Source of the DNA: Candidatus Latescibacterota bacterium
GTDB taxonomy: Bacteria > Latescibacterota > UBA2968 > UBA8231
Length of the DNA stretch: 64,000 nt
Direction of reading: 5' to 3'
NCBI GenBank assembly: GCA_965215195.1
Contig: CBDCDC010000002.1
Span: 576,001 to 640,000 of the forward strand
A model generated the notes under the pieces. That model made no database searches and was not told the origin of the DNA. It saw nothing but the letters and a program-made list of their open reading frames with translations. The translations under genes and the position numbers were made by a program. Shown here in pieces: positions 22,519-51,705 of this stretch; the stretch's first letter is position 1, and the number at the start of each line of letters is the position of its first letter.

Positions 22519-22546
22519 ATGTCTTATAAGGATGATTATGTCAATC
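22519..22546 (+). other. dif-like site S1
   Basis: ATGTCTTATAA-GGATGA-TTATGTCAATC; fills the asnS/leuS gap and overlaps the leuS ATG. Confidence 0.6.
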
Positions 22547-25420
22547 AAAAAAAAAGGCCAATACAATTTCCAAGCCATCGAAACCAAATGGCGATCTCAC
22601 TGGGCGCAGGAGAAGACCTATCAAACGCTGGGACCGGGGGATCCCGGCTTCGATAACAGCAAACCCAAGTGCTACATCCTCGATATGTTTCCCTATTCAA
22701 GCGGCGCCGGGTTGCACATCGGCCATCCCAAAGGGTATATCGCCAGCGACATTTACAGCCGCTACAAAAGGATGTGGGGGTTTAACGTCCTGCACCCGAT
22801 GGGGTTCGACAGTTTTGGATTGCCGGCCGAGCAATACGCCATCGAACACAATGTCCATCCAGCGACCTTTACCGAGCAGAATATCGCTGCGATGCGCAGC
22901 CAATTGCAGTTTCTCGGGCTGTCGTTTGACTGGGCTCGCGAAGTGGTCACGTCGCGGCCGTCGTATTACCGCTGGACGCAGTGGATTTTCGCCCAACTCT
23001 TCGATAGCTATTTCGACGCAGACGAAATCTGGGAAGACGGCAATGGACGCCAAATAAAGGGGCGGACCAAGCCCATCGCCGACTTAGAGGCGCAATTTGC
23101 GGCCGGCCGGGCCTTGTCGGCCACAGATCGCCAAGTTCTTGGCAGCGACGCGGTTTGGTCTGCACTAACCGAGGCCGAGCACCAAACGGTGCTGAATAAC
23201 TACCGGCTGGCGTACCAGCAAGAGGCTGTCGTCAACTGGTGCCCTCGCTTGGGCACTGTGTTGGCCAACGAGGAGGTGACCAGCGAGGGCCGCAGCGAGC
23301 GGGGCAATTTTCCCGTGTATCGCAAACCGTTGCGGCAATGGACGATGCGCATAACAGCCTACGCCGAGCGGCTCTTAGAGGACTTGGACCTTGAACTGGA
23401 AGACCGCGCTGGCGAGCCCTTCCGGATCGATTGGCCAGAACCCATCAAGCGGATGCAGCGCAACTGGATCGGCCGCAGCGAAGGGGCTGAAGTGCGCTTC
23501 GATGTCCTCGATCCGCAAAGCGACGTGGTCGCCGCGCAGTTGCCCGTGTTCACCACCCGGCCCGACACGCTCTTTGGGGCGACTTTTATGGCCATTGCCC
23601 CTCAGCATCCGCTGGTAGATCCTGCCAAAGAATCCTACTTGGTCCCCAAGGCTTGGCCCGACGGGACGCCCGAACAGTGGAAGGGGGGAGGGGACCTCAT
23701 CCGGGAAGCCGTAGCCCAGTACGTAGCTCAAACGGCCGTCTCCACCGCGGATGAAACCAAGGAAAAAACGGGCATTTTCTCCGGCATCTACGCCCGCAAT
23801 CCGGTCAATGGACAAAAAATCCCCATTTTCGTCGCCGACTACGTCAGCATGGACTACGGCGCGGGAGCCATTATGGCGGTGCCGGCCCACGACGAGCGCG
23901 ACTTTGCCTTCGCCATCACGTATAACTTGGATATTGTGCGGGTGGTTGATGGGGGGGAAGGGGAGGCCGCAGGGTGGTATGCCGGGGAGGGAATCGCCAT
24001 CAATTCGCCTTCAGTACTCGCCAGCGATAGTCCATACACCATTAACGGATTGGCGACGGCCGCGGCCAAAGACCAGATCGTCGCTGCACTCGCTGCCCAA
24101 GGGCGAGGCCAAGCTGCGGTAAACTACAAACTGCGCGACTGGACCTTTGCTCGGCAGCGCTATTGGGGAGAACCCTTTCCACTGGCCACGCATCCCGATG
24201 GATATTCCGTCAAAGTCACGCCTCCGGTGGCGCTACCGGCACTAGAGGACTTCAGGCCGGAGACCTCGGATGACCCCGCCCAACCCGTTTCTCCGCCGCT
24301 GCACCGGGCCGGAGCGGAGTGGACGACGGTGGAAATTGACGGGGTGGCCTGCCAACGCGATCTCAACGTCATGCCCCAATGGGCCGGTTCTTGCTGGTAC
24401 TATCTCCGCTTTATCGATCCGCACAACGAAGAAGCCTTCTGCGACCCGGCCAAGGAGGGCTACTTCATGCCCGTTGATCTCTACATCGGCGGTGCGGAAC
24501 ACGCGGTGTTGCACTTGCTCTACGCCCGGTTTTGGCACAAGGCCCTCTACGACTTAGGCCACGTATCCACGCCCGAGCCGTTTAAGAAGCTGTTCAATCA
24601 AGGCATGATGACCGCGGATGCCTTTCAGGACGAGCGCGGCGTGTATATCGACATTCGGGAGGTTGAGTTCCGCGACGGGGAGCCTGTTGAGAAGGGGACG
24701 GGCAAGACGCTGCATCGGTCTTCTGGCAAGATGGGCAAACGCTACAAAAACGGATTGCCGCCCGAAGAAGTCGGCGAGGAATTTGGCGTGGATACCCTGC
24801 GGCTGTACGAAATGTACATGGGGCCGCTCGAAGCGAGTGCGCCGTGGAGCATGGAAGGCATTCGCGGGATGCAGCGCTTTTTGCAGCGCATTTGGCGCAA
24901 CTTTGTCGATTCGGATCGACAGGTGAAAATAGGGGAGAGTGCTGCGTTAGTGCCGGAGTTGGAACGCAAGCTGCACCAAACCATCCAAAAGGTAACTGAG
25001 GACATAGAAGGGCTGCGGTTTAATACGGCTATTGCCACCTTGATCGAGCTAAACAACCTGTTGGTCCCCTTGGACGAGGTGCCGCAGGCCGTCGCCAAGC
25101 CCTTCTTGCTCTTGCTCGCGCCCTTTGCTCCGCATATTGCCGAGGAGCTATGGGAGTTGGCGAATTTTGGGAAGGGAGACCTCAATCGTCAGAGCTGGCC
25201 TGACTGGGATGCCGCAAAAGCCGCCGAGGACATGATCGTAGTGCCCATTCAGGTCAACGGCAAAATGCGCGGACAAGTCGAAGTGCCGGTCCACACCGGA
25301 GAGGACGAGATAAAGTCCTTGGTGCTCGCCATGGCGAGCATCCGCAAATACGTGGCCGATGAAACGGCGATAAAGCGGTTTATATGGGTGCCGGATAGAA
25401 TCGTCAATATCGTGGTGTAG
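22538..25420 (+). CDS. leuS: Leucyl-tRNA synthetase
   Basis: MFPYSSGAGLHIGH, FTTRPDT editing domain, GGAEHAVLHLLYARF, KMGKR; start could be 22532. Confidence 0.97.
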   Translation: MSIKKKGQYNFQAIETKWRSHWAQEKTYQTLGPGDPGFDNSKPKCYILDMFPYSSGAGLHIGHPKGYIASDIYSRYKRMWGFNVLHPMGFDSFGLPAEQYAIEHNVHPATFTEQNIAAMRSQLQFLGLSFDWAREVVTSRPSYYRWTQWIFAQLFDSYFDADEIWEDGNGRQIKGRTKPIADLEAQFAAGRALSATDRQVLGSDAVWSALTEAEHQTVLNNYRLAYQQEAVVNWCPRLGTVLANEEVTSEGRSERGNFPVYRKPLRQWTMRITAYAERLLEDLDLELEDRAGEPFRIDWPEPIKRMQRNWIGRSEGAEVRFDVLDPQSDVVAAQLPVFTTRPDTLFGATFMAIAPQHPLVDPAKESYLVPKAWPDGTPEQWKGGGDLIREAVAQYVAQTAVSTADETKEKTGIFSGIYARNPVNGQKIPIFVADYVSMDYGAGAIMAVPAHDERDFAFAITYNLDIVRVVDGGEGEAAGWYAGEGIAINSPSVLASDSPYTINGLATAAAKDQIVAALAAQGRGQAAVNYKLRDWTFARQRYWGEPFPLATHPDGYSVKVTPPVALPALEDFRPETSDDPAQPVSPPLHRAGAEWTTVEIDGVACQRDLNVMPQWAGSCWYYLRFIDPHNEEAFCDPAKEGYFMPVDLYIGGAEHAVLHLLYARFWHKALYDLGHVSTPEPFKKLFNQGMMTADAFQDERGVYIDIREVEFRDGEPVEKGTGKTLHRSSGKMGKRYKNGLPPEEVGEEFGVDTLRLYEMYMGPLEASAPWSMEGIRGMQRFLQRIWRNFVDSDRQVKIGESAALVPELERKLHQTIQKVTEDIEGLRFNTAIATLIELNNLLVPLDEVPQAVAKPFLLLLAPFAPHIAEELWELANFGKGDLNRQSWPDWDAAKAAEDMIVVPIQVNGKMRGQVEVPVHTGEDEIKSLVLAMASIRKYVADETAIKRFIWVPDRIVNIVV

Positions 25421-25442
25421 GAGGTAAGTGTGCGGCGATAAT

Positions 25443-25470
25443 AAGTCTTATAAAATTTTTTATGTAAATA
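25443..25470 (+). other. dif-like site S2
   Basis: AAGTCTTATAA-AATTTT-TTATGTAAATA; right arm resembles the XerD arm of B. subtilis dif (TTATGTAAACT). Confidence 0.7.
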
Positions 25471-25492
25471 AAAAACAAAGACAAAAAACCCC

Positions 25493-26473
25493 TCAGCTAC
25501 CAATACCAATCCTAATATAATCCGACGCATTATCGAGCAGTTTATCGCGGTTCTCGTAGTAGCGCATGGTCGTCTTTAGATCCTTGTGGCGCAAATGGGC
25601 TTGCACCTGCTGGGGCTTGGCCCCGCCTTCAATCGCCAAGGTGCAGCAGGTGTGGCGGAACATGTGCGCGGTGACGTTTTGGGGGAGGCCGGCGCGCAGG
25701 GCGTACTTCTTGACGATGTGATTTACCGACTGATCGGTTAGTGGCTGGCCGCGAGACTGGTTGCGCGACAGGCTGATGAAAACCTTGCCCGTCGTCGGCA
25801 AGCCCGCTGCTCGTAGTTGTTGTTTGTATAGTTCGAGATGATGCAGGACGACGCTTTGCAGTTTGATTTCCTGCGCCATGCCCGATTTAGTCTGGGGCAG
25901 GTGCAAAATGTAAAAGACGCCCTCCAAAGATATATCCTCCCAAGCGACGCCCGCCACTTCGGAGCGGCGCAGCCCACCGAAAGTGAGCAACTGAAACATA
26001 GCCGCATCGCGCGTACGGACCAAGTCGTCTTTTTCCTCGGCAATGGCTTGCTGGATCTTGTTCAGCACCTGATTGGAAAGTGCTTTGCCGGCCAGCGTTT
26101 CATCTACCTTGTAACCGCGCACCAAGGTGGAGTCGGCGGGATTTTTCTCGATGTGGCCCAAGGCGACCAACATCTTGAAGAACGACTTTAGGCTGGATAA
26201 TTTTCTGTTGATGCTGCTGCGCTTGTAACCTTCGCTGGCGAGTTGGTTTCTAAAGGCGACCACGTGCTCAAAGGTGATTGACTGCAAGACAGCGAGGGAC
26301 ACTTTATCCAGTTCCAAGCCGATAGATAAAAAGAAATGCTGGAGATCGGCGTAATAGGCACGCCGGGTGCGCTCGCTGAGCTGGCCGCTGAGAAATTGTT
26401 CCAAAGGATCGTCTGACGCCACCGCGGGTGTTGGCGTCAGACTGCGGACGACCGGAGTGAGTGTGCGGCTCAT
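25493..26473 (-). CDS. Xer-like tyrosine recombinase
   Basis: SAM-like N-domain (TRRAYYADL, SINRKLSSLKSFF); catalytic R (GLRRSE), K (TKSG), HMFRH, HLRH, Y (MRYY). Confidence 0.93.
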   Translation of the reverse strand: MSRTLTPVVRSLTPTPAVASDDPLEQFLSGQLSERTRRAYYADLQHFFLSIGLELDKVSLAVLQSITFEHVVAFRNQLASEGYKRSSINRKLSSLKSFFKMLVALGHIEKNPADSTLVRGYKVDETLAGKALSNQVLNKIQQAIAEEKDDLVRTRDAAMFQLLTFGGLRRSEVAGVAWEDISLEGVFYILHLPQTKSGMAQEIKLQSVVLHHLELYKQQLRAAGLPTTGKVFISLSRNQSRGQPLTDQSVNHIVKKYALRAGLPQNVTAHMFRHTCCTLAIEGGAKPQQVQAHLRHKDLKTTMRYYENRDKLLDNASDYIRIGIGS

Positions 26474-26596
26474 TGAATATGCTTACAGGGGCTAAAGGTC
26501 TGAGGCATTAAATATCCGGGATGTTCTTAACAGTGGCTAAAGAATAGAGTAAATATAGCGAACATCGCGGCATTTTGCTGTCGATTCGCCTAGACA

Positions 26597-26632
26597 TTAT
26601 ACTACCGATAACAGGCATTATCGGTAGTATAA
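26597..26632. other. Perfect 15-6-15 palindrome, putative recombination/binding site of the adjacent recombinase
   Basis: TTATACTACCGATAA-CAGGCA-TTATCGGTAGTATAA. Confidence 0.75.
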
Positions 26633-26654
26633 ATCGTAAAAAAATAAAAGTCAA
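26626..26654 (-). promoter_or_regulatory. Sigma70 promoter of the recombinase, overlapping the palindrome
   Basis: TTGACT-17 bp-TATACT on the minus strand. Confidence 0.7.
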
Positions 26655-26893
26655 TGAGAGCGAGACAAAGACATGTAACGTCGGCTGGATTGGTCTGTTG
26701 GTGTTGGCCTTGGTTTCGGTGTGGCGTGGTTTCCTTGGCGGCGCGTCAGCTTCTCGCTGCGTCAAGGCATCGAACTGTCATACAAATATGCCTCCAACGT
26801 TCCGCCGAAGCCCGAACTTGACCATTCACATAGGTTTTCCTTGGGCGTTCCGTCTATGCGCCTACTTGCGCTCGTCCATTTTTAGTTGCAGCC

Positions 26894-28666
26894 CTATAAC
26901 TTCTGCAACAAACGCTCCATATCGCGCAACTTCATCCGCGCCATGATCGGCTTGTCCGTCGGGCTTATGTGCGGCCGGTCAACCTTGAGCAATTCGTCGA
27001 TCAAATGCGCCATTGCCTCGGCGTTCAGTTTCTGCCCCTTCTTGATACTCGCTTTGCGCGCATAAGCCAAGACGAGTGCTTCGCGCCAAGATCGGCCCGA
27101 ATGCTGGCCATCGCGCACGTCGTTCAATAGCTGATAAAAAGCATCGCCTTCGCCAAAGCGATCCAATTCGGCGGGCATTGCCTCCACCAACACCGTCCGC
27201 GTACCAAAATCCCGCACGCCAAAGCCCAGCTTGGCAATGTCGGCCCGCACTTGCTCGAAGACCGCAAAATCCGCTGCGCCCATTTCTAGCTGGATGGGAA
27301 AGAGCAACTGCTGACTCTCGCCAGCCACGCCGTCCATTTGCGCCATGGCCCGATCGTAGTTGATGCGCTCGTGCGCGGCCTGCTGATCGACGAAGAGCAA
27401 GCCGTCGGCAACCTCGACGAGGATGTACTGGTTGTGGACCTGCCACATCGCGGCGTTTTCGACCAAGGCGACTTTGGCCGCGGCCGGGGCGACGAAGGTC
27501 AAGGCGAGTTCGTCGTCTGCACCGTGGGTTGCTGCTACCGCGGACTCGCCAGGTGCGGCCGGGCTGTGCAACACCGGCGACGCTGGTTCGCCCACGCGGG
27601 CCGTAGCACTGGGAGGTGTGCTGTCCGGCCGCATTGGGGCCGCAGCATAGACAAAGGATTGCACATCGGGCAGCCTGAGCTTCTGCCGGACGCTGTCTTC
27701 AATGGCCGCGATGACCTGCCCTTCGTTGGCCAAGCGAATCTCCCGCTTTGTCGGATGGACATTGACATCGATCTTCTTGGGATCCATATCGATCCAGAGC
27801 ATGAATACCGGATGGTGTCCTTCGGGCAGCAGCCCCTCAAAACACCGCTGTACAGCACTGGCCATCAGTCGCGAAGAAATGGGCCGCCCCTGTACGATGA
27901 GGTACTGCTTGCCCTTGCTCCGGCCGCAGTGCTCAGGACCAGCCAAGACGCCTTCGATTTTGAGGCCCTCTTCCTCATAAGCGAGATCCAACAGTTCGGC
28001 GGCTGGATCAGCCCGGCCTCGCATGCCCAACAACTCGGCCGCCCGCTCCCGACGAGGTGCCGGGGCGTAGCTCAATACTTGGTGCGCTTGGTGCGCTAGT
28101 TCAAAGCCAAGGGCCGGGTAACCGGCGGCTAAATGAATGATGGTCTGGGCCACGTGCCGGGCTTCCGCCTCGACGGAGCGGAGGAATTTGCGCCGCGCCG
28201 GCGTATTAAAAAACAAGTTCTTTACCGCGATAGTCGTGCCGCGTACGCGGCCCATGCTGTGCATCTCTCGCTCTATGCCCCCTTCCACGACCAAGCGCGT
28301 CCCGACTTCGTCTTGCTGGGTGCGCGATTCTATCGCCAAGTGAGCCACCGCCCCAATGCTGGCTAGCGCCTCGCCGCGAAATCCCAGCGTCTGAATGCGA
28401 AATAGGTCGGCCACCGAGGCCATCTTGCTCGTGGCATGACGGCGCACACACAAAGCGATATCCTCCCTGTTCATGCCCGATCCATCGTCGGTCACCACAA
28501 TCGACTGCTTGCCACCGGCCTTAATTTCCACGCGGATTTTAGCAGCGCCCGCATCGATCGAGTTTTCGACCAATTCCTTCACGACCGAGGCCGGCCGTTC
28601 CACCACCTCGCCAGCGGCAATTTTGCCAATGAGACTTTCGTCGAGAACGCGAATGGTACTCGCCAT
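26894..28666 (-). CDS. mutL: DNA mismatch repair endonuclease MutL
   Basis: IAAGEVVERPASVVKELVENSIDAG, GFRGEAL, DVNVHPTK, DQQAAHER. Confidence 0.97.
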   Translation of the reverse strand: MASTIRVLDESLIGKIAAGEVVERPASVVKELVENSIDAGAAKIRVEIKAGGKQSIVVTDDGSGMNREDIALCVRRHATSKMASVADLFRIQTLGFRGEALASIGAVAHLAIESRTQQDEVGTRLVVEGGIEREMHSMGRVRGTTIAVKNLFFNTPARRKFLRSVEAEARHVAQTIIHLAAGYPALGFELAHQAHQVLSYAPAPRRERAAELLGMRGRADPAAELLDLAYEEEGLKIEGVLAGPEHCGRSKGKQYLIVQGRPISSRLMASAVQRCFEGLLPEGHHPVFMLWIDMDPKKIDVNVHPTKREIRLANEGQVIAAIEDSVRQKLRLPDVQSFVYAAAPMRPDSTPPSATARVGEPASPVLHSPAAPGESAVAATHGADDELALTFVAPAAAKVALVENAAMWQVHNQYILVEVADGLLFVDQQAAHERINYDRAMAQMDGVAGESQQLLFPIQLEMGAADFAVFEQVRADIAKLGFGVRDFGTRTVLVEAMPAELDRFGEGDAFYQLLNDVRDGQHSGRSWREALVLAYARKASIKKGQKLNAEAMAHLIDELLKVDRPHISPTDKPIMARMKLRDMERLLQKL

Positions 28667-28672
28667 ATATCC

Positions 28673-29197
28673 TCACAACTCGGCCCAGAGCCGCTCGGCC
28701 TGCTGCCGGAATTCGGCTTGGGTAATTTTGCCTTGTTTGAGCGCGGTTTCCAAGTCGCGCAAGCGGCGGCGCGGCCCCCCGCCCCCTTTGAGATCCAGCC
28801 GTATTTGGGACCAGATGTGCCACCCCCCCACGCCGAGCAACAAGGCCATGAAGACCGCCCCTACCCACCACGAGGTATCTTGCTCGTGGCGCACCGCTCC
28901 CCCCTTTTGTCGCCAATCTTCGGCCACGGCTGGGTCAGGCTCGGCCAGCGCGATCCGCTTGGCCAGTGCCGCGCCGTTGGTCCCTTGGACGCGCACGGCC
29001 CTTTTGAGCTGCCAAGTAAATCCCCGGGGTTGCACGATTAGATACTCGATGAGATCGGCCTTTCTTATCTGATCGAACTGCTCCCTAGTAACCGGCACGA
29101 TCATTGGGCTGAGCATATTGAACAGCAACACGATTGCTAACAAGAAGCTCGCTAAGCCGAGAGCGAAGTATGTGGGCGGTGTGGATGACTTTTTCAT
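28673..29197 (-). CDS. Two-TM membrane protein with C-terminal SHOCT-like domain
   Basis: Two hydrophobic helices; LRDLETALKQGKITQAEFRQQ. Confidence 0.7.
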   Translation of the reverse strand: MKKSSTPPTYFALGLASFLLAIVLLFNMLSPMIVPVTREQFDQIRKADLIEYLIVQPRGFTWQLKRAVRVQGTNGAALAKRIALAEPDPAVAEDWRQKGGAVRHEQDTSWWVGAVFMALLLGVGGWHIWSQIRLDLKGGGGPRRRLRDLETALKQGKITQAEFRQQAERLWAEL

Positions 29198-29201
29198 TCT
29201 T

Positions 29202-29229
29202 TGTTTACATAAAAAATTTTATTGGACAT
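29202..29229 (-). other. dif-like site S3
   Basis: Minus strand ATGTCCAATAA-AATTTT-TTATGTAAACA; same spacer as S2, inverted. Confidence 0.7.
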
Positions 29230-30017
29230 TATTTTACTTGCTTGCGATTTAAGACCGCGTCTTGTCTCGCCGACGTGCGCATCCATTCCAAGAGGCGATA
29301 GCTTTCGCCCACCTGCCCCAAACCCAATAACGGCTGGGCGTGCCCTTGGATACAGGCGACGAAATTGCGATAGTACGCCGCCAGATCGTCCGCTTCCCAC
29401 GCCCAAGGCCAAGACGCATCGACTATTTCGTCCTGTGCATATGAGCGGATCCGCAAAGCCGGGGCCACAGCCGGAAAGTCGAAGAGCGCAACCGAGCCTT
29501 CGACGCCGTTGCGCATCCTCAGCAGCGCGAGCGACACATCCTCCATGCGCCCGGGATGAAAGAAGTTGCGCATCCTGCTGTACAGCACATCTACCGGCCC
29601 CCAAGTGCTCACCAGCAGGTCGCATACGTCCAAGATCGCTTGGTTGCAGATCGTCTCGCGGTCGATGGGATCGAAGGAAGCCGAATCAAAAGAAAGCTCT
29701 AAGGAGTAATGCGCTACGCCTCGTCGGGCGGCCAGAGCCGCGCAAAAGCGCGTATGCCGCCCCAAGGACAGCACACCTACATTCGGATGGCTACCCTGTA
29801 CGGGATGGGTCGCCATAACGTGCAGACCGACCGCTGTGGCCACGCCGATCCAGTGCGATTTATCGTCCACGTGTAACAGCACTAGCCCATCTATTTCTTG
29901 CTCCAAAACCGCGGCGCAGTCGGCTTGGTGTACGAGCTGGATATCGCAGCAACCCCGCAAGGCACCCCGATGGGCGGCTACCTCGCGGGCATGGCCTACC
30001 ACGCCGAGCGTCATCAT
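29229..30017 (-). CDS. Divergent Gfo/Idh/MocA-like oxidoreductase
   Basis: TLGVVG start, EDVSLALLRMRNGVEGSV, FVACIQG..P...G..S..LLE C-terminus. Confidence 0.6.
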   Translation of the reverse strand: MMTLGVVGHAREVAAHRGALRGCCDIQLVHQADCAAVLEQEIDGLVLLHVDDKSHWIGVATAVGLHVMATHPVQGSHPNVGVLSLGRHTRFCAALAARRGVAHYSLELSFDSASFDPIDRETICNQAILDVCDLLVSTWGPVDVLYSRMRNFFHPGRMEDVSLALLRMRNGVEGSVALFDFPAVAPALRIRSYAQDEIVDASWPWAWEADDLAAYYRNFVACIQGHAQPLLGLGQVGESYRLLEWMRTSARQDAVLNRKQVK

Positions 30018-34264: not shown

Positions 34265-34777
34265 TTAATAAACGATAGCGCTTGCCAATTTGTACCCGTG
34301 CAAGAGGCGGCGGCCCGACAGAAAGCTCAATTCGGCCAAAACGCTGATGCCGGCGACAACGGCCCCGAGTTTTTCGAGCACTTGACACGTTGCCGCCAAG
34401 GTCCCGCCGGTGGCCAAAACGTCATCCACGACCAATACCTTTTGCCCCGGTGCTACGGCATCAGTGTGTATTTCTAAGGCCGTCTCGCCGTATTCGAGCG
34501 CGTAGGCGCGGCGCAGCGTGGCTGCCGGTAGCTTACCCGGTTTGCGCATTGGAACAAAACCGCATCCCAATTCGAGGGCGATGGGCACCGCGAACACAAA
34601 CCCGCGGGCCTCTATGCCGACGACTAGGTCCACTTCGGCTTCCGCAAAGGGTTCGAGCATGGTTTGGACCGCGGCCGATAAACCAGCCGGGTCTTTGAGC
34701 AGTGGCGTGATGTCTTTGTATGAGACGCCGTCTTGCGGGAAATTGGGGATTTCGCGGATGAGGTCTTTTAGGCTCAT
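34265..34777 (-). CDS. apt: Adenine phosphoribosyltransferase
   Basis: GIEARGF, RKPGKLP, YALEYG, VDDVLATGGT. Confidence 0.96.
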   Translation of the reverse strand: MSLKDLIREIPNFPQDGVSYKDITPLLKDPAGLSAAVQTMLEPFAEAEVDLVVGIEARGFVFAVPIALELGCGFVPMRKPGKLPAATLRRAYALEYGETALEIHTDAVAPGQKVLVVDDVLATGGTLAATCQVLEKLGAVVAGISVLAELSFLSGRRLLHGYKLASAIVY

Positions 34778-34803
34778 TTTACATATTATAATTTATAAGT
34801 CTT
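34776..34803 (-). other. dif-like site S4
   Basis: Minus strand AAGACTTATAA-ATTATA-ATATGTAAAAT; fills the gap between the small gene and apt. Confidence 0.6.
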
Positions 34804-34963
34804 AAAACAGCGCGTAAATAAACGGGGCCACAGCCGACCCTTGGGTCGTGACTATTAACAGCGCCAACAGGATCAAAGTGGCGAATATCGGCCCCAACCA
34901 CCACTTTTTGCGCACCTTCATAAAATCCCATAACTCAGCGAAAATACTCAATTTACTTGGCAT
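34802..34963 (-). CDS. Small DUF5989-like membrane protein (53 aa, not in the ORF track)
   Basis: MPSKLSIFAELWDFMKVRKKWWLGPIFATLILLALLIVTTQGSAVAPFIYALF. Confidence 0.85.
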   Translation of the reverse strand: MPSKLSIFAELWDFMKVRKKWWLGPIFATLILLALLIVTTQGSAVAPFIYALF

Positions 34964-43922: not shown

Positions 43923-43928
43923 CTTAGC

Positions 43929-44398: not shown

Positions 44399-44427
44399 AG
44401 AATATGGCACGGCTCATGCTCTGTCAA
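44399..44427 (-). promoter_or_regulatory. Promoter of the hup-bS22-tRNA operon
   Basis: TTGACA-17-TATTCT. Confidence 0.7.
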
Positions 44428-44443
44428 GGCGCACAGCACCCTC

Positions 44444-45217
44444 TCAGCCCGAGCCGAGGTTTTTGCCAAGTACGAAAACCTCTTCGAGTACAGAGAAATC
44501 CACAGTTGATTTGAGGACGACCCGCAAAAAGACCGGGGCCCGCTTTTCCTGATTCACCTCCGCCACTGTGCCAATCGGTATGCCCTTGGGGTAGCGCCCG
44601 CCCAACCCCGACGACAGCACTAGATCGCCCTCCTGCACCAAGTTGCTCGCTTCGACGAATTGCAACCGGAACTGGCCATCGGTCCACGAGACAATGCCTT
44701 GGGCGCGCGTCGCTTGGATCAAAGCACTAACCCTCGCACGCATCAACAACTGCACGACCGAGTCCGATGCACCGACTTGGGCAATGTGCCCGACGAGCCC
44801 TTTGGGCGTCACCACGGCCATATTCTTATCTACGCCGAGGTCGCGGCCAGCGTTGATGACGATCGTGTCGTAAATGTGGTCGGGGTCGCGGCCGATCACC
44901 TCGGCAGAAATAATGCGCGTACCCCCGTCTAGAGGCCGAAAGGACAGGGCCTTGCGCAGGCGCACATTTTCCCATCCAGCTTCCTGTAGCCGCATGTTGT
45001 CGAGGGCTAGGGCTACGTTTTGGGTCAGGAGAAAACGGCTCTTTTCCTCGTTGCGGGCAGAGCGGATAACTTGCGAAAACAGCGCTTGACCTGATGCCAA
45101 TAAACCGACTTGGCACCGCTCGGCGATGTAGGTCTTATAGGGGCGAGGTAAGCCTATCAAAATCAAGGCGCAGACAACGGCCAACCCAATGACGACGAGC
45201 TCCCGGGTATTGGTCAT
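44444..45217 (-). CDS. mreC: Rod shape-determining protein MreC
   Basis: ENVRLRKAL, AEVIGRDP, GLVG, SSGLGGRYPKGIPIG; follows mreB. Confidence 0.92.
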   Translation of the reverse strand: MTNTRELVVIGLAVVCALILIGLPRPYKTYIAERCQVGLLASGQALFSQVIRSARNEEKSRFLLTQNVALALDNMRLQEAGWENVRLRKALSFRPLDGGTRIISAEVIGRDPDHIYDTIVINAGRDLGVDKNMAVVTPKGLVGHIAQVGASDSVVQLLMRARVSALIQATRAQGIVSWTDGQFRLQFVEASNLVQEGDLVLSSGLGGRYPKGIPIGTVAEVNQEKRAPVFLRVVLKSTVDFSVLEEVFVLGKNLGSG

Positions 45218-45223
45218 AGTCGA

Positions 45224-46243: not shown

Positions 46244-46439
46244 TCTGTATCTCCAGCCAAAAAGTTAAATCTCGACTCTGTAGCCTTGGTCTGAGCACCC
46301 CGGCATCGAGAGCATTCGCTATTGCCTATCTATAATAACTAAGGGGATTTGGATTTGCCAAATCACTCGCCCCCTTATATGTTCTAGCGCTAGCTAATTC
46401 TACACACTACGCAATTTTCAGGGAGGCAGCGCATTCGCT

Positions 46440-46925
46440 ATGAACAAGGCCGCACGGCATGTACTGCGGAGATTAGGGACCGACCATAGCTTGGACCAAG
46501 AGCGCCAACAGCGCTTGGCGCGTGAGGTCCAAGAAGAGCAGCAAAAACGCCGGGACCAAGGGGCTGACCAAGATACCAGCTTCGAGGCCATTCCCGAAGA
46601 AATGCTGACCGAGTCGGAAAAGCGCCACGAGAAATATCGCCGCCAACAGGCCATGGCCGGGCGATTCACCCCTGCTGCCGAGCGCCTGCCCATTATGACG
46701 GCTGAAGAGCGGGCCGCTCACAATAAGCACCGGCCTAAGTGGCAGCAGACTTCGTTTGAGGGGCCGATTGAAAAGCTAATTGAGAAATACCAAGACTTAG
46801 AGGAAGTACAACGCCACCTGACCTTGGGTCAATCCATGAAGTACGAGTTTACCAGCGACGGCCGCGTCCTCGACAAAGAGGGCAATGTGATCTTCGATGG
46901 AGAGAAGATCGTCGGCAAACTCTAA
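46440..46925 (+). CDS. Hypothetical charged protein
   Basis: 161-aa ORF with upstream GGGAGG and host-like codon use; no recognised motif. Confidence 0.7.
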   Translation: MNKAARHVLRRLGTDHSLDQERQQRLAREVQEEQQKRRDQGADQDTSFEAIPEEMLTESEKRHEKYRRQQAMAGRFTPAAERLPIMTAEERAAHNKHRPKWQQTSFEGPIEKLIEKYQDLEEVQRHLTLGQSMKYEFTSDGRVLDKEGNVIFDGEKIVGKL

Positions 46926-46959
46926 GTTAGCTGGCTTGCTCTCCTATTAAAATTCACAA

Positions 46960-48042
46960 GTGGCTGCTGGCCGCGTGCCTCGTCTATATCGAGTTCTCAT
47001 CGGGCTTGGCCTGTTGAGTGTCTGTGGCTGCAATCTCAATTACTATTGGCATCTGGCCCGAGGCCAAAGCCGCGTATTGTACAAGCGCATACCAGTCCAA
47101 GCCCTCCTCGCCCGCCCCGACTTGGCCGAGCGAACTCGGACGCAACTAGAGCTGATCCAAGCCATTCTTCGCTATGCCGAAAGCGTGGGGCTGAAAACAG
47201 ACGATCACTACACGACCTTCTACGATACGGGTGGCGGCCCGATCAGTTGGAATGTCAGCGCTTGTCCGCCCGACCGCTTTTCGCCCTATACTTGGGATTT
47301 TCCGCTCGTTGGCGAGGTCCCCTACAAAGGTTTCTTTCGACGCGATTTGGCCGACGAGCAGCGCGATGCTCTCGCCGCCGAAGGGTATGACGCCATTGTC
47401 CGCCCGGTCAGTGCCTACAGCACCTTGGGAATTTTCTCCGATCCAATTCTCAGCCCAATGCTCGGCTACGCGCCCGACCAGCTAGCCGATTTGATCCTCC
47501 ACGAGCTGACTCACGCCCTCGTCTATGCCCCGGGGCAGACCGATTACAACGAGAGCTTGGCGACCTTCGTCGGCCGCCAAGGATCCTTGCTCTTCTTGGC
47601 GCAGCACTTCGGGGCCGATACCCCGCTCTTGCAACAGGCCGAGACGCGCCGAGCGGACGCGGCCCTCTTTCGGCACTTCATGGCCGAGACCGTCGCTGCG
47701 CTCGACAGCCTCTACTCGCTGGGATTGCCCCGCAGCGTTGTTTTGCGCGCTAGGCAGGTCGTTTTTGCCCAGCACCAGCGCGATTTTGCCCTCATTAGAA
47801 CAGAGTTTACCCACAACCAGTACGATGGATTCCTCCAGTGGGAACTAAACAATGCGCGGCTCCTATCTTATCGGCGCTACAACACCAATCTATCACTTTT
47901 TTTTGCTATTTATCGCACCTGCGGCGAGGACTTGGCCAGTGCCTTGGGGATTTTTGCAACCTGCGCCGAAGAAGGCGACCCTTGGCAGTGCCTGCGCGTC
48001 ACCATAGGGGCTGAGGAAGGCCGATCTCTTGGGTCCGAATGA
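46960..48042 (+). CDS. Predicted zinc aminopeptidase lipoprotein (DUF2265-like)
   Basis: Lipobox VCGC, PYKGFF, AYSTLG.FSDP, ILHELTH...NESLA. Confidence 0.85.
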   Translation: MAAGRVPRLYRVLIGLGLLSVCGCNLNYYWHLARGQSRVLYKRIPVQALLARPDLAERTRTQLELIQAILRYAESVGLKTDDHYTTFYDTGGGPISWNVSACPPDRFSPYTWDFPLVGEVPYKGFFRRDLADEQRDALAAEGYDAIVRPVSAYSTLGIFSDPILSPMLGYAPDQLADLILHELTHALVYAPGQTDYNESLATFVGRQGSLLFLAQHFGADTPLLQQAETRRADAALFRHFMAETVAALDSLYSLGLPRSVVLRARQVVFAQHQRDFALIRTEFTHNQYDGFLQWELNNARLLSYRRYNTNLSLFFAIYRTCGEDLASALGIFATCAEEGDPWQCLRVTIGAEEGRSLGSE

Positions 48043-48908
48043 CAGCTAAACACATTTTGACAACGGTCTTGCTGGCGACCCTCGCCTTTGGTCCGCTCGG
48101 GTGCGCCGCTAGGTTGCAGTCTGCGCTGGTGGGGTCCCTGATAGAGGACGTCAGTGCGGCCACAGCTCGCCACGACGACTTGGATTTGGTCGCCTCGGGC
48201 GTACCTACCTTTCTGCTCTTATTAGAGGGGCTGCTGGTGGCCAATCCCCAAGACCCGCAATTGCTCTCAAGGGCCGCTGAGACCTATGCTTCCTACGCCA
48301 CTTTGGTCGAAGTCGATGATCCCCAACGGGCCAAGCACCTGTACCACCGGGCCAAAGTGTACGGTCTCAAAGCCCTCTCTCTACGCCTTAGTAAGCCAGA
48401 CTTGCTCCAAGCACCGTATGCTGAATTTATCCGCGTTACCGACGACCTAGAGGCATCAGACCTGCCGGTCGTATTTTGGGCCGCTTCAAGTTGGGGTGCT
48501 TGGATTAGTGCCAATATTGAATCCATGGCAGCACTGGCCGAGTTGCCCAAAGTCATTAAACTTATGCAGTGGATCGTGGCCCAAGACCAGACCTTTCAAT
48601 ACGGGAGTTCCCATGTCTTCTTGGGTTCGTATTACGCAGCCCTGCCGCCGATGTTGGGCGGCGACCCGCAAAAGGCCGCCGAGCACTTCGACCGAGCACT
48701 GGCCATCAGCAAAGGACAGGTGCTCATGGTGTACGTAGCCAAGGCCAAATTCTATGCGCGGAATACTTTTGACCGAGTGCTGTACGAATCCCTGCTCAAC
48801 CAAGCCCTAACCAGCCCGGCGGACGCCGTACCGGAGCTTACCTTGCAAAACATCGCCGCCCAAAAACAGGCGCAGATTCTGCTAGACCAAGCCGATGATT
48901 TCTTTTAA
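48039..48908 (+). CDS. TRAP transporter TatT (TPR lipoprotein) component
   Basis: Lipobox PLGC, LPPMLGGDP, precedes dctP. Confidence 0.85.
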   Translation: MTAKHILTTVLLATLAFGPLGCAARLQSALVGSLIEDVSAATARHDDLDLVASGVPTFLLLLEGLLVANPQDPQLLSRAAETYASYATLVEVDDPQRAKHLYHRAKVYGLKALSLRLSKPDLLQAPYAEFIRVTDDLEASDLPVVFWAASSWGAWISANIESMAALAELPKVIKLMQWIVAQDQTFQYGSSHVFLGSYYAALPPMLGGDPQKAAEHFDRALAISKGQVLMVYVAKAKFYARNTFDRVLYESLLNQALTSPADAVPELTLQNIAAQKQAQILLDQADDFF

Positions 48909-49899
48909 GGGACTTTTTGCAGTCGTCGCCGCTCTCATAGCCAGCCCGGTCGCGGCCCAACCCAATCACCTCCTCAAAATTGCGACGCTCGCCCCAGAGG
49001 GCAGCAGCTATGCCAAGGCCCTCCGCACCATTGACGCGGATGTGCGGCGGGAGACGGGCGGCACCGTGGGGTTCAAAATCTATCCCGGCGGCGTCCAAGG
49101 CGACGAGAAGGTCATCTTGCGCAAGATGCGCATCGGCCAGCTCCACGGCGGAAATTTTGGCGGCCAAGGCATCAGCCAGACCTTCCCCGATGTCCTCGCG
49201 CTGGAAATGCCCTTCCTCTTCGACAGCTATGACGAAGTAGATTACGTACTCGAGAAAATGGATGCCTTTTATCGGCAGGGATACGAGGAACAAGGCTATG
49301 TCTTGCTCGGTTGGGCCGACATCGGCTTTGTCCACATTCTTTCGCAGCAACCCGTAGCTACGGTTGCGGACATGCACACCCAAAAGGTATGGCAGCTACC
49401 CGACGAACCGCTTACCTCCGTGCTTTTCCGCCTAGCCGGCGTCACCTCGGTTCCCCTAAACATCCCGGATGTCCTCCTCGGGTTGCAGACCAACCTAATC
49501 GACGTGGTGTATGCCTCGCCGTCGGCGACCATCATTCTCCAATGGTTTACTCGCGCAAAATACGTCACCCAACTTCCCATCAACTACACCTTGGGTGCTC
49601 TCTTGATCGACAAGCGAATTTTTGACAAAATTCCCGCCGCCGATCGCGAGCGCATCCACCGCATAGCACAGCAGCACCTGGCCGCCTTGGGACAGCGCAA
49701 CCGCCGAGAAAACAACGAGGCCATGACTGTGTTGCAGGCCAATGGCCTGTCGCTGGTCGAGGTTAGCCCTAAAGATGTAGAGACCTTCAAAAGCCTCGTC
49801 GCCAACGCCGAAGCCGAGCTCGTAGGCCAGGCTTTTTCCCGCGCGGCCCACGAGCAAATAGCGCGACACCTCTACGACTTCCGCCGGGCTTCCCCTTGA
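48895..49899 (+). CDS. dctP: TRAP substrate-binding protein DctP (TatP type)
   Basis: KIATLAPEGS, YPGGVQGDE..RKMRIGQL, LQTNLID. Confidence 0.92.
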   Translation: MISFKGLFAVVAALIASPVAAQPNHLLKIATLAPEGSSYAKALRTIDADVRRETGGTVGFKIYPGGVQGDEKVILRKMRIGQLHGGNFGGQGISQTFPDVLALEMPFLFDSYDEVDYVLEKMDAFYRQGYEEQGYVLLGWADIGFVHILSQQPVATVADMHTQKVWQLPDEPLTSVLFRLAGVTSVPLNIPDVLLGLQTNLIDVVYASPSATIILQWFTRAKYVTQLPINYTLGALLIDKRIFDKIPAADRERIHRIAQQHLAALGQRNRRENNEAMTVLQANGLSLVEVSPKDVETFKSLVANAEAELVGQAFSRAAHEQIARHLYDFRRASP

Positions 49900-50372
49900 G
49901 CGGCCGGTGCTTCCTCCACCGACTTGAAACCGGCTTCCTCGTCCTTTTGGTAACCTGCCTGCTGGTGCTGACTTGCGGGCAGATCCTCATGCGCAACCTG
50001 TTCTCCATCACCTTCTTGGGCAGCGAAAGTCTCGTGCGGCACCTCGTGTTGTGGATTGGGCTGGCGGGTGCTTTGGTGGCCACCCGGCTCGACAAGCACA
50101 TCCGCATTGACGCTGCGTTGCGCCTGCTACCCGCCCGGGTGCGAGCCATTGTCTTGAGCTGCGCGGACTTTTTTGCCGCCGCGCTTTGCGCCTATCTAGC
50201 CTATATTGCTGGGCGCTTCGTGCTCGACGAACGCGCATTCGGCACAATGGCTTTCTTTGCCGTCCCCTCTTGGATCGCCCAACTGTGCTTTCCCCTCGCC
50301 TTTGGCCTGATGGGGCTGCGTTTCCTCTTGCAGGGCAGGCACCGCCGCCGCGCCGCCGCAGATCGCCCGTGA
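49896..50372 (+). CDS. dctQ: TRAP small permease
   Basis: Four TM helices, HIRID. Confidence 0.88.
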   Translation: MSGRCFLHRLETGFLVLLVTCLLVLTCGQILMRNLFSITFLGSESLVRHLVLWIGLAGALVATRLDKHIRIDAALRLLPARVRAIVLSCADFFAAALCAYLAYIAGRFVLDERAFGTMAFFAVPSWIAQLCFPLAFGLMGLRFLLQGRHRRRAAADRP

Positions 50373-51622
50373 GCAGCCTCCTCGCCGCCGTAGCCACCCT
50401 AGCTGGAGTCCCGCTCTTTGTGGTCATCAGCGCGATGGCCCTGTTGCACTTCTCCCTCGCCGAGATCGACTTAACCGTCGTCTTCATCGAGATGTACCGG
50501 TTAGCCGAGACGCCGACCTTAACGGCTATTCCGCTCTTCGCCCTCACCGGTTTCGTCCTCGCCGAAAGCGGGGCACCGGCCCGGCTGGTGCGCTTCTCCC
50601 AAGCCTTGCTCGGCTGGCTGCCAGGCGGTCTGGCCATTATGGCCATTGTCGTCTGCGCCCTCTTCACGGCGTTGACCGGGGCTTCCGGGATGACGATTGT
50701 CGCGCTCGGAGGGCTGCTGTTGCCCGCTCTGCGACAACAGCACCTGCCCGACTCGTTTTCCCTCGGGCTGATTACCACCTCGGGCAGCTTGGGATTGCTC
50801 TTTCCCCCGAGCCTGCCGCTAATCATCTACGGCATCGTATCCGAGACGCCGGTAGATCAGCTTTTCATCGCCGGCATTGCCCCCGGCTTGCTCTTGGTGG
50901 GTGCCCTGTCGTGCTACAGCTTGTTCCAAGGCCGGCGCTGTGCCGCGCCTGAGCGCCCCACCGGGTGGCGGCAATTGCCGCAGGCCTTTGTCGCGTGTAG
51001 TTGGGAGCTTCTGTTGCCGGTGGTGATCTTCGGGGGGATCTACGGGGGGATCATCGCCGTCAGCGAGGCCGCGGCCTTGAGTGCCCTGTACGCTTTAGTG
51101 GTAGTGGTGCTAATCCGCCGCGAGATCTCCATCGGGCAACTGCCGAGGATTATATGCGACAGCATGGTGCTCGTCGGCGGCATTTTCGTCGTCTTGGCCG
51201 CCGCTATGGCCTATACCAATTACCTCGTTGATGCGGAAATTCCAACGCGCTTGCTCGCCTATATAGAGACGCACATCAGCAGCCGCCTGCTCTTTTTAAT
51301 TCTCCTCAATGTGTTTCTGCTGGCGGTTGGCTGTATGATCGACATGTTCTCGGCCCTCCTCATCGTCGTGCCCCTGATTCTGCCCATCGCCCAAGCATAC
51401 GACGTTCACCCCATTCACCTCGGGATCATTTTTTTGACCAACTTGGAAATTGGCTACTCAACGCCGCCGGTCGGGCTCAATCTCTTTATCGCCAGCATTC
51501 GCTTTGAACAGCCCGTCCATCGGCTCTACCGAGTCTCTTTGCCTTTTCTGCTGATTTTGTTGGCTTGCTTGGTCGTGATTACTTACTGGGCTGATTTGAG
51601 TTTGTTTCTCGTTGAGTCTTAA
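50369..51622 (+). CDS. dctM: TRAP large permease
   Basis: AIPLF, FTALTGASG, GLLFPPSLP, TPPVGLNLF; GTGA overlap. Confidence 0.93.
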   Translation: MSSLLAAVATLAGVPLFVVISAMALLHFSLAEIDLTVVFIEMYRLAETPTLTAIPLFALTGFVLAESGAPARLVRFSQALLGWLPGGLAIMAIVVCALFTALTGASGMTIVALGGLLLPALRQQHLPDSFSLGLITTSGSLGLLFPPSLPLIIYGIVSETPVDQLFIAGIAPGLLLVGALSCYSLFQGRRCAAPERPTGWRQLPQAFVACSWELLLPVVIFGGIYGGIIAVSEAAALSALYALVVVVLIRREISIGQLPRIICDSMVLVGGIFVVLAAAMAYTNYLVDAEIPTRLLAYIETHISSRLLFLILLNVFLLAVGCMIDMFSALLIVVPLILPIAQAYDVHPIHLGIIFLTNLEIGYSTPPVGLNLFIASIRFEQPVHRLYRVSLPFLLILLACLVVITYWADLSLFLVES

Positions 51623-51677
51623 ATGTTGCTTGGCTCCGCAGGCCAAGGGCTGATGCACTGTTTTCACGGGCGCATTT

Positions 51678-51705
51678 TATTTACATATTAATCTTTATAT
51701 GGCGT
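51678..51705 (-). other. dif-like site S5
   Basis: Minus strand ACGCCATATAA-AGATTA-ATATGTAAATA, overlapping the mcrC stop. Confidence 0.5.

Follow-up and report, generated by a model that had tools for sequence, protein, structure and literature searches.

In the XerCD/dif system of FtsK-dependent dimer resolution, a survey of 641 strains found each chromosome to have a single predicted dif site (PMC3025954). FtsK is described as halting at XerCD-dif from either side, and XerD alone on a half-site as forming a block approximately 5-fold better from the outer face (PMC2800217); FtsK activation is reported to require DNA beside the XerD arm (PMC2673442). In accounts from B. subtilis XerD releases SMC at the terminus (PMC12322038, PMC11898615), and clusters of chromosomal dif-like sites flanking modules are described in Acinetobacter (PMC12907356).

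Here, we analyse a 64,000-nucleotide stretch of a Candidatus Latescibacterota chromosome (hereafter the window), in which five dispersed dif-like sites, S1 to S5, had been predicted around a probable replication terminus. We show that the terminus holds a non-random, conserved array whose arms are under selection, and that its inner pair, S2 and S3, has been active in recombination in nature, repeatedly inverting the block of genes between them.

An oriented array of dif-like sites at the replication terminus

All five sites were confirmed against the window letters at the coordinates originally given, each of 28 bp with an 11-6-11 layout, and the starts listed for S3, S4 and S5 are the high ends of minus-strand sites. 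S1 (22519-22546, plus strand) lies between the asnS stop codon and leuS; S2 (25443-25470, plus strand) in the convergent gap between the end of leuS and the 3′ end of a recombinase gene, rec; S3 (29202-29229, minus strand) between the p262 stop and the p174 start; S4 (34776-34803, minus strand) reaches exactly from the stop codon that ends an ORF for a small membrane protein to the start codon of apt; and S5 (51678-51705, minus strand), the rightmost, lies in the convergent gap between the ends of dctM and mcrC. S1, S3 and S4 were said to fill gaps between co-directional genes, and they do so, with S2 and S5 between convergent genes. Apart from the inner ATAA/TTAT the two arms differ from each other, as they do in dif sites served by two recombinases.

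With up to one mismatch allowed, the core pattern ATAA-N6-WTATGTMAA has 5 matches in the window where 0.06 are expected, and none of 100 shuffles of the window reached 5 (maximum 1). An arms-only PWM scan of the 6.13-Mb genome (approximately 12.3 million positions) returned 18 positions at or above 18 bits, headed by S1-S5 at 31.5-36.7 bits (S2 being the best), with the runner-up, C1:149437, at 24.1 bits. When each site was omitted from the PWM in turn it still scored 25.0-33.6 bits and ranked fifth or better of the approximately 12.3 million positions, outscored only by members of the other four, and the best unrelated position reached 23.1-24.6 bits. The five sites are thus real, dif-type, the top five in the genome and unique to the terminus, rather than matches at background frequency.

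Cumulative GC skew along the contig that contains the window (C2) peaks at 600,000, at approximately position 24,000 of the window, with a minimum at 3.52 Mb; along contig C1 it rises monotonically. Within the window the peak falls at 24-26 kb, where gene orientation also converges, and S1-S5 all lie inside 29 kb around the skew maximum, so that both the proposed terminus and the enrichment of sites at the skew switch are borne out. The mirror orientation claimed for the sites also holds and is conserved in relatives: the polarity is ++/---, with the XerD-type arm of each site facing the centre. In all genomes examined, polarity and gene strand are fully confounded, and the XerC arm invariably adjoins the stop codon of a gene whose transcription runs toward the site.

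The core pattern is matched in 27/27 genomes of the genus, and a reversed control gave 0-2 matches. Spacing and the ++/--- order are identical among complete chromosomes, and the complete relatives examined (6/6) carry six sites, a 3+3 mirror array including a further leftmost site, S0; six sites, and not the five originally counted, are the norm for the genus. In the window the S0 place (4460-8040, plus strand) is occupied by a 3.58-kb insert (GC 0.54-0.57) carrying two LRR-protein genes (Pfam LRR) between an NFACT-family gene and miaA, and synteny with 6/6 relatives, each with a 28-bp S0 there, breaks between window positions 4459 and 8041; S0 has been lost from this genome and replaced by the insert. 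As predicted, orthologous gaps across the genus keep their sites, with conserved arms and drifting spacers. For the inner sites the two arms hold 1.58 and 1.69 bits per position, values inflated by the positions that the search pattern fixes, compared with 0.54 and 0.97 for the non-coding flanks and 1.11 for the spacer. Exceptions are the loss of S2 in L013 and a 7-nt spacer in L003.

We favour, with moderate confidence, the interpretation that these are genuine XerC/XerD-type dif sites forming a conserved, mirror-symmetric, terminus-centred array, usually with three sites per side. The original prediction called for locating xerC and xerD elsewhere in the genome, and there we found a XerD (347 bits, above cut-off) and a XerC-like paralogue (318 bits, under the 335-bit cut-off of its model); two strong Xer paralogues are present in all 27 genus genomes. 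The genome also encodes an FtsK gamma domain (104.6 bits) and Smc (1038 bits).

Inversion at the inner sites and the local recombinase

S2 and S3, also denoted the R and P sites, bound a block of approximately 3.5 kb (25471-29201) that contains three minus-strand genes: rec (25493-26473), mutL (26894-28666; TIGR00585, 475.5 bits) and p174 (28673-29197). The last is the first gene of the block and encodes a 174-aa protein that matches no family above cut-off and adjoins mutL throughout the family. Relative to its flanks, the block is in configuration A in 15 and configuration B in 10 of the 25 classifiable genus rows, and in A in 7/7 outgroups; both configurations occur in chromosome-level assemblies. 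A tree of 8 flank proteins requires 6 changes of state, at least 5 of them forced by the starred branches, and the sister pairs of unlike state (L009/L010, L012/L015, L005/L006 and L011/L014) are only approximately 0.01-0.02 substitutions per site apart. The reversed block identified by blastn corresponds to window positions 25483-29259 in G011 and 25438-29230 in G021, the outer flanks staying put while the spacer and XerD arm travel with the block. Because both orientations occur, with at least 5-6 changes between them and with breakpoints inside S2 and S3, the inner pair recombines in nature. This inversion is a new result, absent from the original prediction, and is the only direct evidence that any site is active.

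Some details complicate a simple exchange. In L009/L010 the block also seems to carry along a left-arm variant, at a single polymorphic position, which is unexpected for a crossover in the spacer. The two inner spacers are identical in 6/22 genomes, where shuffling predicts 2.1 (P 0.009, a value that overstates significance because the relatives are not independent), and they are unlike in the other 16, where complete Xer exchange should be hindered. At the level of contigs from the sequencing runs, no strand-changing joint was found that would indicate inversion within a population.

The product of rec is a 326-aa Xer-like tyrosine recombinase, with Pfam Phage_integrase and SAM-like N-terminal domains, that scores 136.9 bits with the XerC model and 125.8 bits with the XerD model, below both cut-offs. 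Its catalytic R, K, HxxR, H and Y align with those of the XerC and XerD of the same genome (26.5% and 23.9% identity, respectively). The closest solved structure is XerD (1a0p, E 8.7e-18); the match to the XerS model is weak (79.7 bits, cut-off 267), and XerH gives E 8.4e-6. The gene is single copy in 54/63 family genomes and adjoins dif in every family locus in which a dif was found, with its 3′ end at the XerD-type arm. Upstream of rec is a palindrome (26597-26632) with 15-nt arms and a 6-nt loop, which is present in 13/33 loci examined, with paired arm changes and with the loop in both orientations; a flipped loop occurs in contigs of three sequencing runs. The palindrome is not a constant partner of rec, and the suggestion of a separate single-subunit recombinase with a palindrome of its own is not supported, since most of the loci examined lack the palindrome and rec sits beside dif, not apart from it, wherever a dif was found.

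Most other genera have a single dif at the 3′ end of rec. S2, which occupies that position here, is probably the ancestral dif, the dimer-resolution site, with the remaining sites being later additions. In three genera (g7, g9 and g13) the order is mutL, dif (plus), rec, dif (minus), leuS, such that an inverted pair surrounds rec alone. In g11 the arms are unchanged though a non-orthologous tyrosine recombinase sits in the place of rec (30% identity over 146 aa), and the persistence of the arms without rec argues that it is the XerC/XerD pair that reads them.

We suggest that the conserved XerC/XerD pair binds the arms and that rec may be a third player. Xer recombination at dif, once activated by FtsK, is not known to be subject to a topological filter, and inversion of the block would then be an expected by-product of having two functional dif sites in inverted orientation.

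A different enzyme is conceivable, with rec rather than XerCD acting on the inner pair, the site-rec-site unit being a self-contained invertible cassette that carries its recombinase gene within the inverting segment, as Hin-type switches do, and the outer sites being further rec targets. The constant location of this usually single-copy gene between or beside sites, its complete set of catalytic residues, and the genera in which the inverted pair brackets rec alone are all consistent with this, and the replacement enzyme in g11 suggests that a recombinase gene is wanted at the locus. Moreover, g11, g12 and g17-g19 show a single strong canonical Xer paralogue, and in these genera the second subunit could therefore be rec. 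However, the unlike arms are those of two-recombinase dif sites, the same arms occur in g11 with a non-orthologous recombinase, and with only 24-27% identity rec is not expected to share the arm specificity of XerC and XerD. We consider this unlikely.

Possible roles of the outer sites

The outer sites, S0, S1, S4 and S5, are conserved and free of rearrangements, and each has a private spacer. S1 holds the leuS start codon within its XerD-type arm, and its spacer GGATGA also serves as the ribosome-binding site; it is conserved in 23 genus loci and is present in L024, L025, L030 and L079, but absent from distant relatives, in which leuS starts differently. S4 is conserved in the genus, and the prs-apt gap also holds a site in two other genera (L055 and L058). 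S5 is at the same place in 6/6 complete relatives examined, with an invariant right arm. The outer sites may be bound by the same proteins as the inner pair, with their private spacers preventing recombination among themselves and with S2 or S3; multiple dif copies in direct repeat would be a hazard if all were fully active. If so, they could be orthogonal back-up resolution sites, where exchange takes place solely between the two copies of one site on a dimer, or else oriented XerD or XerCD roadblocks or unloading points for FtsK and Smc on their way to the terminus.

A narrower possibility, which we also hold to be unlikely, is that the outer sites are XerD-binding unloaders of Smc-ScpAB at the terminus, as in B. 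subtilis, with loop extruders arriving from the origin side on both arms. Smc and XerD are both encoded and the 3+3 layout is symmetric about the terminus, but the XerC-type arm is conserved too.

It is very unlikely that the outer sites are functionless, neutral scars of Xer-mediated insertions of the IMEX or dif-module type. Site number does vary, through the losses of S0 and of S2 noted above and the altered spacer in L003, and the Acinetobacter clusters offer a precedent. Nothing, however, is inserted between the sites, since the core genes there (leuS, apt, prs and others) are in the same order in outgroups without sites; furthermore, the arms are conserved while the non-coding flanks have diverged within the genus, sites of the S1 and S4 types persist in other genera, and orientation does not alternate.

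Less likely still is a Ter-like polar trap that admits replication forks to the terminus and blocks their leaving. Oriented Ter sites have mirror polarity around the skew switch, and the array follows this logic; a search for homologues of Tus and RTP found none, so a different protein would have to serve. However, the array spans only approximately 45 kb, its polarity is the one confounded with the strand of the genes, and we know of no tyrosine recombinase that arrests replisomes.

Equally far-fetched is the proposal that these are RNA- or expression-level elements, such as translation-start or 3′-end contexts, with their dif likeness and clustering being incidental. Every site is sense to its upstream gene, S0 and S1 contain the ATG of the next gene, S3 and S4 finish 0-5 nt upstream of a start codon, and an A-rich tract follows most XerD-type arms; with XerC arms abutting stop codons and S0 and S1 supplying start codons, site orientation could follow gene orientation for reasons of expression. 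Against this, S2 and S5 are in convergent gaps without a downstream ORF, the 6.13-Mb genome has just five copies, none of them away from the terminus, and the inner pair are DNA recombination breakpoints; for S2 and S3 this explanation is already largely refuted. Finally, ordinary homologous recombination between short inverted repeats is a highly improbable source of the inversions, since although up to 19 bases are identical between S2 and S3 here, such repeats are very short, are canonical recombinase sites, and often have unlike spacers (16/22 genomes), and yet at least 5-6 flips have occurred among 25 close relatives, sister pairs included.

Comparison with known systems

The array resembles XerCD/dif, sharing the 28-bp 11-6-11 layout, unlike outer arms, an inner palindrome, a position at the GC-skew switch, and the presence of XerD, a XerC-like paralogue and FtsK with a gamma domain. 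It differs in having five to six mirror-oriented copies instead of one per chromosome, in an inner pair that is inverted and flips the intervening DNA, and in a third Xer-like gene embedded in the array. The single-recombinase Xer modules, XerS/difSL, XerH/difH and archaeal XerA/dif, are similar in having a recombinase gene beside the presumed site (PMC5357621), but here the spacer is the canonical 6 nt, there is an XerD-type arm, and canonical XerC/XerD are also encoded.

As with the XerD-binding, SMC-unloading sites of B. subtilis, several Xer-type sites surround the terminus besides dif, in a genome with Smc and XerD, but here both arms are conserved and one pair recombines; this comparison covers the clustering of sites, the proteins encoded and the function stated for B. 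subtilis. The dif modules of Acinetobacter, plasmid-borne (pdif) and chromosomal, likewise involve many XerC/XerD-type sites per replicon, some pairs being inverted (PMC12907356), but those sites flank accessory or resistance modules able to pass from one replicon to another, whereas the sites here lie among syntenic core genes at the terminus, in non-alternating orientation, and no module movement is seen. Tus/RTP Ter fork traps share the opposite site directions on the two sides of the terminus, and differ in that the sites here are recombinase sites, with no Tus or RTP gene found, extending over tens rather than hundreds of kilobases.

Five dif-like sites at the replication terminus

The five sites of the original prediction are all present in the window where it had placed them, and each consists of an 11-bp arm, a 6-bp centre, and a second 11-bp arm, with the inner arm ends palindromic and the outer ends unlike. 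S1 (22519–22546, + strand) is located between the asnS stop and leuS, and carries the leuS start codon as an ATG in its right arm and a GGA ribosome-binding motif in its spacer; S2 (25443–25470, +) is where leuS and rec, an Xer-like tyrosine recombinase gene, converge, in the gap between their 3′ ends; S3 (29202–29229, −) takes up the space that separates an unknown 262-aa gene from the 174-aa gene (p174) preceding mutL; S4 (34776–34803, −) reaches from the stop codon of a small membrane-protein ORF to the start codon of apt; and S5 (51678–51705, −) is between the convergent ends of mcrC and the TRAP-transporter gene dctM. The five together span 29 kb.

Beyond their XerD-type arm, most sites continue into an A-rich tract (22547–22560, 25471–25490 and 29185–29201 in the window, and the same places in relatives), and the tract after the S1 arm gives the leuS product a lysine-rich N-terminus (MSIKKKG...). 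The small ORF beside S4 (34804–34930, −), read by eye, encodes a hydrophobic protein ending ...APFIYALF, and its stop codon overlaps the first S4 bases. An mcrC–mcrB-like restriction pair (51695–54291; McrBC family, AAA_5 ATPase) directly abuts S5, with the mcrC stop codon overlapping the S5 left arm.

The clustering of the sites is beyond chance by a wide margin. The core pattern, allowing at most one mismatch, matches five times in the window against 0.06 expected, and an arms-only weight matrix applied to the 6.13-Mb genome places the five sites at ranks 1–5 (31.5–36.7 bits), with the best position outside the array at 24.1 bits. The genome-wide matrix scan that the prediction had proposed bears it out even when sites are withheld, each left-out site still ranking fifth or better among approximately 12.3 million positions. 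With five copies per chromosome, the array departs from the usual single dif.

The array is located at the replication terminus. Cumulative GC skew on the contig that holds the window (C2) has its maximum at 600,000 – equivalent to about 24 kb in the window – and its minimum at 3.52 Mb, while the second contig shows a monotonic rise in skew. The turn falls at 24–28 kb in the window, and all five sites sit on the skew maximum, in agreement with the predicted enrichment near the switch.

Conservation of the array and replacement of S0

The core pattern is matched in all 27 genomes of the same genus, compared with 0–2 matches for a reversed control pattern, and among complete chromosomes both the spacings (about 2.9, 3.5, 5.6 and 17.5 kb) and the ++/−−− order recur. 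As anticipated, the arms are kept and the spacers vary between genomes. For the inner sites (S2 and S3) the two arms carry 1.58 and 1.69 bits per position, values that are inflated at positions fixed by the search pattern, relative to 1.11 for the spacer and 0.54 and 0.97 for the non-coding flanks; left-arm positions 1–7, which escape this bias, still average about 1.4 bits. Consensus and per-position information derive from 6–52 sites per class, and these conservation figures are qualitative only, owing to that bias and because the classifier filed just 15 S4 and 52 'inner' sites, some of them misfiled.

A sixth site, S0, is present in all six complete relatives examined, 14.5 kb to the left of S1 and between an NFACT-family gene and miaA; the left arm of S0 contains the stop codon of the former, and its right arm the start codon of the latter. 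The usual state is therefore a mirror array of three plus three sites. S0 is absent from the genome described here, and a 3.58-kb insert of lower GC content (0.54–0.57; window 4460–8040) occupies its place, coding for two leucine-rich-repeat proteins (4474–6006 and 6071–7948). We considered whether this insert is an IMEX, and rejected the idea because no dif-like borders remain; the insert replaced a site. The miaA N-terminus beside it is changed in this genome.

Other sites also turn over, and related loci include one that has lost the site beside rec (L013) and one in which the site there has a 7-nt spacer (L003). Sites in the asnS/leuS gap and the prs/apt gap are not confined to the genus. 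Distant relatives that lack S1 have a leuS with a different beginning, and thus S1 brought the start codon with it and did not grow around one. The array is under selection at the terminus.

Recurrent inversion between S2 and S3

The DNA between S2 and S3, containing rec, mutL and p174, is found in two orientations. In configuration A – seen in the window, in 14 further loci of the genus and in all seven outgroup loci – the p174-mutL-rec block is collinear with its S3-side neighbours and is oriented convergently to leuS. Configuration B (ten loci of the genus) has the block reversed, so that it follows leuS and converges on the 262-aa gene. Nucleotide synteny with two related genomes, G011 and G021, shows that only the block is reversed (window 25483–29259 and 25438–29230, respectively). 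Both configurations are represented among chromosome-level assemblies, so that a scaffolding artefact can be dismissed.

A maximum-likelihood tree built from eight flanking proteins, with 32 rows (that of the partial locus L021 and three distant ones left out), shows six changes of block orientation, and at least five changes are forced by its strongly supported branches. Four sister pairs only about 0.01–0.05 substitutions per site apart differ in orientation. At the junctions the outer flank stays put, and the spacer and XerD-type arm move with the block, as seen in L012/L015 and in L006 versus L008/L028; L009/L010 and L005/L006 are uninformative or ambiguous on the crossover point, and in L009/L010 one left-arm variant appears to have moved together with the block as well. 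The resolution of the sister pairs is too low to say which strand exchanges first. In 6 of 22 genomes both inner sites have the same spacer, compared with 2.1 expected by shuffling (P 0.009, a value made generous by relatedness), which fits occasional homogenisation by exchange. These data show that the S2/S3 pair recombines and forms the breakpoints of recurrent inversions.

Logan contigs from four sequencing runs (X12, X13, X14 and X1) contain no strand-changing joint; because rare variants drop from contigs, these neither show nor exclude mixed orientations. One X1 contig is collinear with the window over the whole stretch, and the listed pieces from X12, X13 and X14 gap at S2 and S3. The runs labelled as particular-habitat metagenomes hold 0.05–0.08 of the words. 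Among short-read assemblies, one contig (L070) ends at the rec stop and another (L005) starts 48 nt before a site, and L021 contains only part of the block (the rest of p174, mutL and rec), with its contig end about 35 nt past rec. Contig ends at or near the dif beside rec fit, anecdotally, with branching of the assembly graph at the sites.

Candidate recombinases, site polarity and known systems

Two candidates for the enzyme acting at the inner pair are the XerC/XerD-type proteins of the cell and the product of rec itself. Genes for XerD (347 bits, above the model cut-off) and a XerC-like paralogue (318.2 bits against a XerC cut-off of 335.15, and 40% identical to XerD of the same genome) were located far from the terminus, and two strong Xer paralogues are present in all 27 genomes of the genus. 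The genome also encodes an FtsK gamma domain (PF09397, 104.6 bits) and Smc. We infer that the arms belong to XerC/XerD, because the outer arm halves are unlike, the right arm is of the widely conserved XerD type, and the arms are unchanged where rec has been replaced; rec is kept as a possible third player.

The rec gene (25493–26473, −) codes for a 326-aa recombinase with a full R-K-HxxR-H-Y set, whose best solved relative is XerD and which is only 24–27% identical to XerC and XerD of its own genome. It is single-copy and vertically inherited in the family (54 of 63 genomes and 14 of 15 genera), and is almost always found between mutL and leuS with mutL co-oriented (15 of 16 further loci). 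Its apparent decay to a pseudogene in the L024/L030 subclade was rejected, the 'stop inside' flags corresponding to the natural stop codon of an intact gene. Wherever our patterns found a dif-like site in the family, it adjoins the 3′ end of rec and turns its XerD-type arm towards that gene; S2, which has this position here, is likely to be the ancestral dif. In three other genera of the family (g7, g9 and g13) an inverted pair of sites 1.15–1.26 kb apart brackets rec alone. The genus g11 lacks rec in all three genomes, and has in its place a different tyrosine recombinase of 309 aa, which scores 45 bits against the XerD model and shares 30% identity with rec over 146 aa. Its gene is beside a single, otherwise similar dif, with the 3′ end toward the XerD-type arm (L060, 5961–6890; L061, 7165–8094).

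The original prediction also supplied the local recombinase with a palindrome of its own. The palindrome, at 26597–26632, is present in only 13 of 33 loci, and was rejected as a constant site of rec. It lies upstream of rec, its 15-nt arms show paired (compensatory) changes across loci, and its 6-nt loop is found in both orientations between genomes, including contigs of three runs in which it is flipped relative to the window; it may be an operator, or a small element subject to inversion or template switching.

Two further observations concern other genera. Only one strong canonical Xer paralogue is found at E ≤ 1e-60 in g11, g12, g17, g18 and g19, where the terminus recombinase might be the second subunit. 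In g10 (L062, G048:C1:977001–989000; L057; L058) the orientation of rec relative to mutL is reversed and leuS is located elsewhere than between asnS and rec, with an additional two dif-like sites, opposite in orientation, 39 kb apart; the terminus of this genus is rearranged, possibly via recombination at the sites.

The FtsK-activated dimer-resolving reaction at dif is not known to have a topological filter, and a pair of functional dif sites in inverted orientation would therefore be inverted by the same reaction that resolves dimers, while either inner site could still act in dimer resolution by pairing with its counterpart on the sister chromosome. Each outer site has a private spacer – S1 has GGATRA and S4 mostly CATATA, with different ones again at S0 and S5 – and no rearrangement between them was seen in any genome compared for gene order or synteny. 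We read this as indicating that they would bind the same proteins as the inner pair while being kept orthogonal by spacer heterology, and they may provide a back-up for resolution, or act as oriented points at which machines are stopped or unloaded.

The XerD-type arms all face inward, such that on either replichore a machine bound for the terminus encounters the XerC-type arm before the XerD-type one, as a polar device would need. According to PMC2800217, FtsK in vitro stops at XerCD-dif from either side and XerD alone blocks it about five times better from its outer face; activation of recombination by FtsK needs DNA next to the XerD arm (PMC2673442), and XerD is said in PMC12322038 and PMC11898615 to release SMC at the Bacillus subtilis terminus. 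Site polarity is fully confounded with gene strand, each XerC-type arm being at the stop of a gene transcribed toward the site. Four of the six sites also contribute to the start of the following gene. The two exceptions, S2 and S5 in their convergent gaps, have no gene downstream; both point the expected way, which is weak evidence for polarity. An action at the RNA level, raised as a caveat to the original prediction, is excluded as the sole role of the inner pair, and is unlikely for the other copies because they share their arms with that pair and such arms occur nowhere else in the genome.

A more elaborate and rather doubtful proposal is that XerD, with or without XerC, acts asymmetrically at the six oriented sites on converging FtsK, Smc and perhaps replisomes, letting inward-moving machines pass or be unloaded and stopping outward-moving ones, with the invertible rec/mutL core an active part and not a by-product. 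If so, the final steps of segregation would be confined to the few kb between S2 and S3, and the core could, for example, switch the replichore and the upstream operon of the cassette.

The dif site is treated as a single-copy landmark of bacterial chromosomes, and extra Xer sites are known mainly as attachment points of phages and plasmids, or as XerD-binding sites in one model organism. Here, in nature and throughout a genus, complete dif-type sites have multiplied into a symmetric, oriented terminus array kept under selection, with one inverted pair visibly recombining over short evolutionary time. The array offers a test bed for how differing spacers protect dif sites that lie near one another against destructive recombination, a means of asking whether Xer proteins act architecturally at termini outside the Firmicutes, and a new class of chromosomal inversion polymorphism in which mutL and a recombinase gene are moved between replichores. 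It is also a warning that dif predictors assuming uniqueness, and assemblers, can stumble at such termini. The interest for researchers in chromosome segregation is clear, and the organisms are uncultured.

Among the matches listed in literature searches, no paper describes a mirror array of dif sites or an inverted dif pair flanking a recombinase, and none joins 'Latescibacter' with dif or Xer terms. Predicted dif sites number one per chromosome in 641 strains in PMC3025954, whose tables of predicted sites might contain multi-hit genomes.

The array resembles XerCD/dif in its 28-bp 11-6-11 sites at the GC-skew switch and the FtsK gamma domain, and differs from the known single copy in having five sites, or six in each of the complete relatives examined. 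Foreign DNA lies between directly repeated dif-like sites in IMEX, whereas none lies between such sites here. Opposite polarity on the two sides of the terminus recalls Tus-Ter and RTP-Ter, although here it is confounded with gene strand, and those systems have a terminator protein gene whereas no match to Tus (PF05472) or RTP (PF02334) was found in this genome, which is 95% complete. Hin/hix-type segments likewise contain a recombinase gene between inverted short sites and are found in both orientations, but they use a serine invertase and an enhancer, whereas rec encodes a tyrosine recombinase. Multi-site cases known so far comprise B. subtilis with its XerD-binding sites, Acinetobacter with its accessory dif modules (PMC12907356), and phage or island integrations. 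By sequence, the array shares with the SMC-unloading sites of B. subtilis the presence of several XerD-type sites in the terminus region besides dif. The B. subtilis type also entails a loss of SMC that depends on XerD and not on recombination, and the genome described here has the genes for both proteins. The Acinetobacter sites flank discrete accessory modules and alternate in orientation, whereas here the order is ++/−−− or +++/−−− with core genes between the sites, and these genes are syntenic in outgroups without the sites. In the sources consulted, the array stands apart from these multi-site cases in that full two-arm sites, set between core genes, are combined with a mirror-symmetric layout around the terminus and a core that inverts and carries a recombinase gene and mutL.
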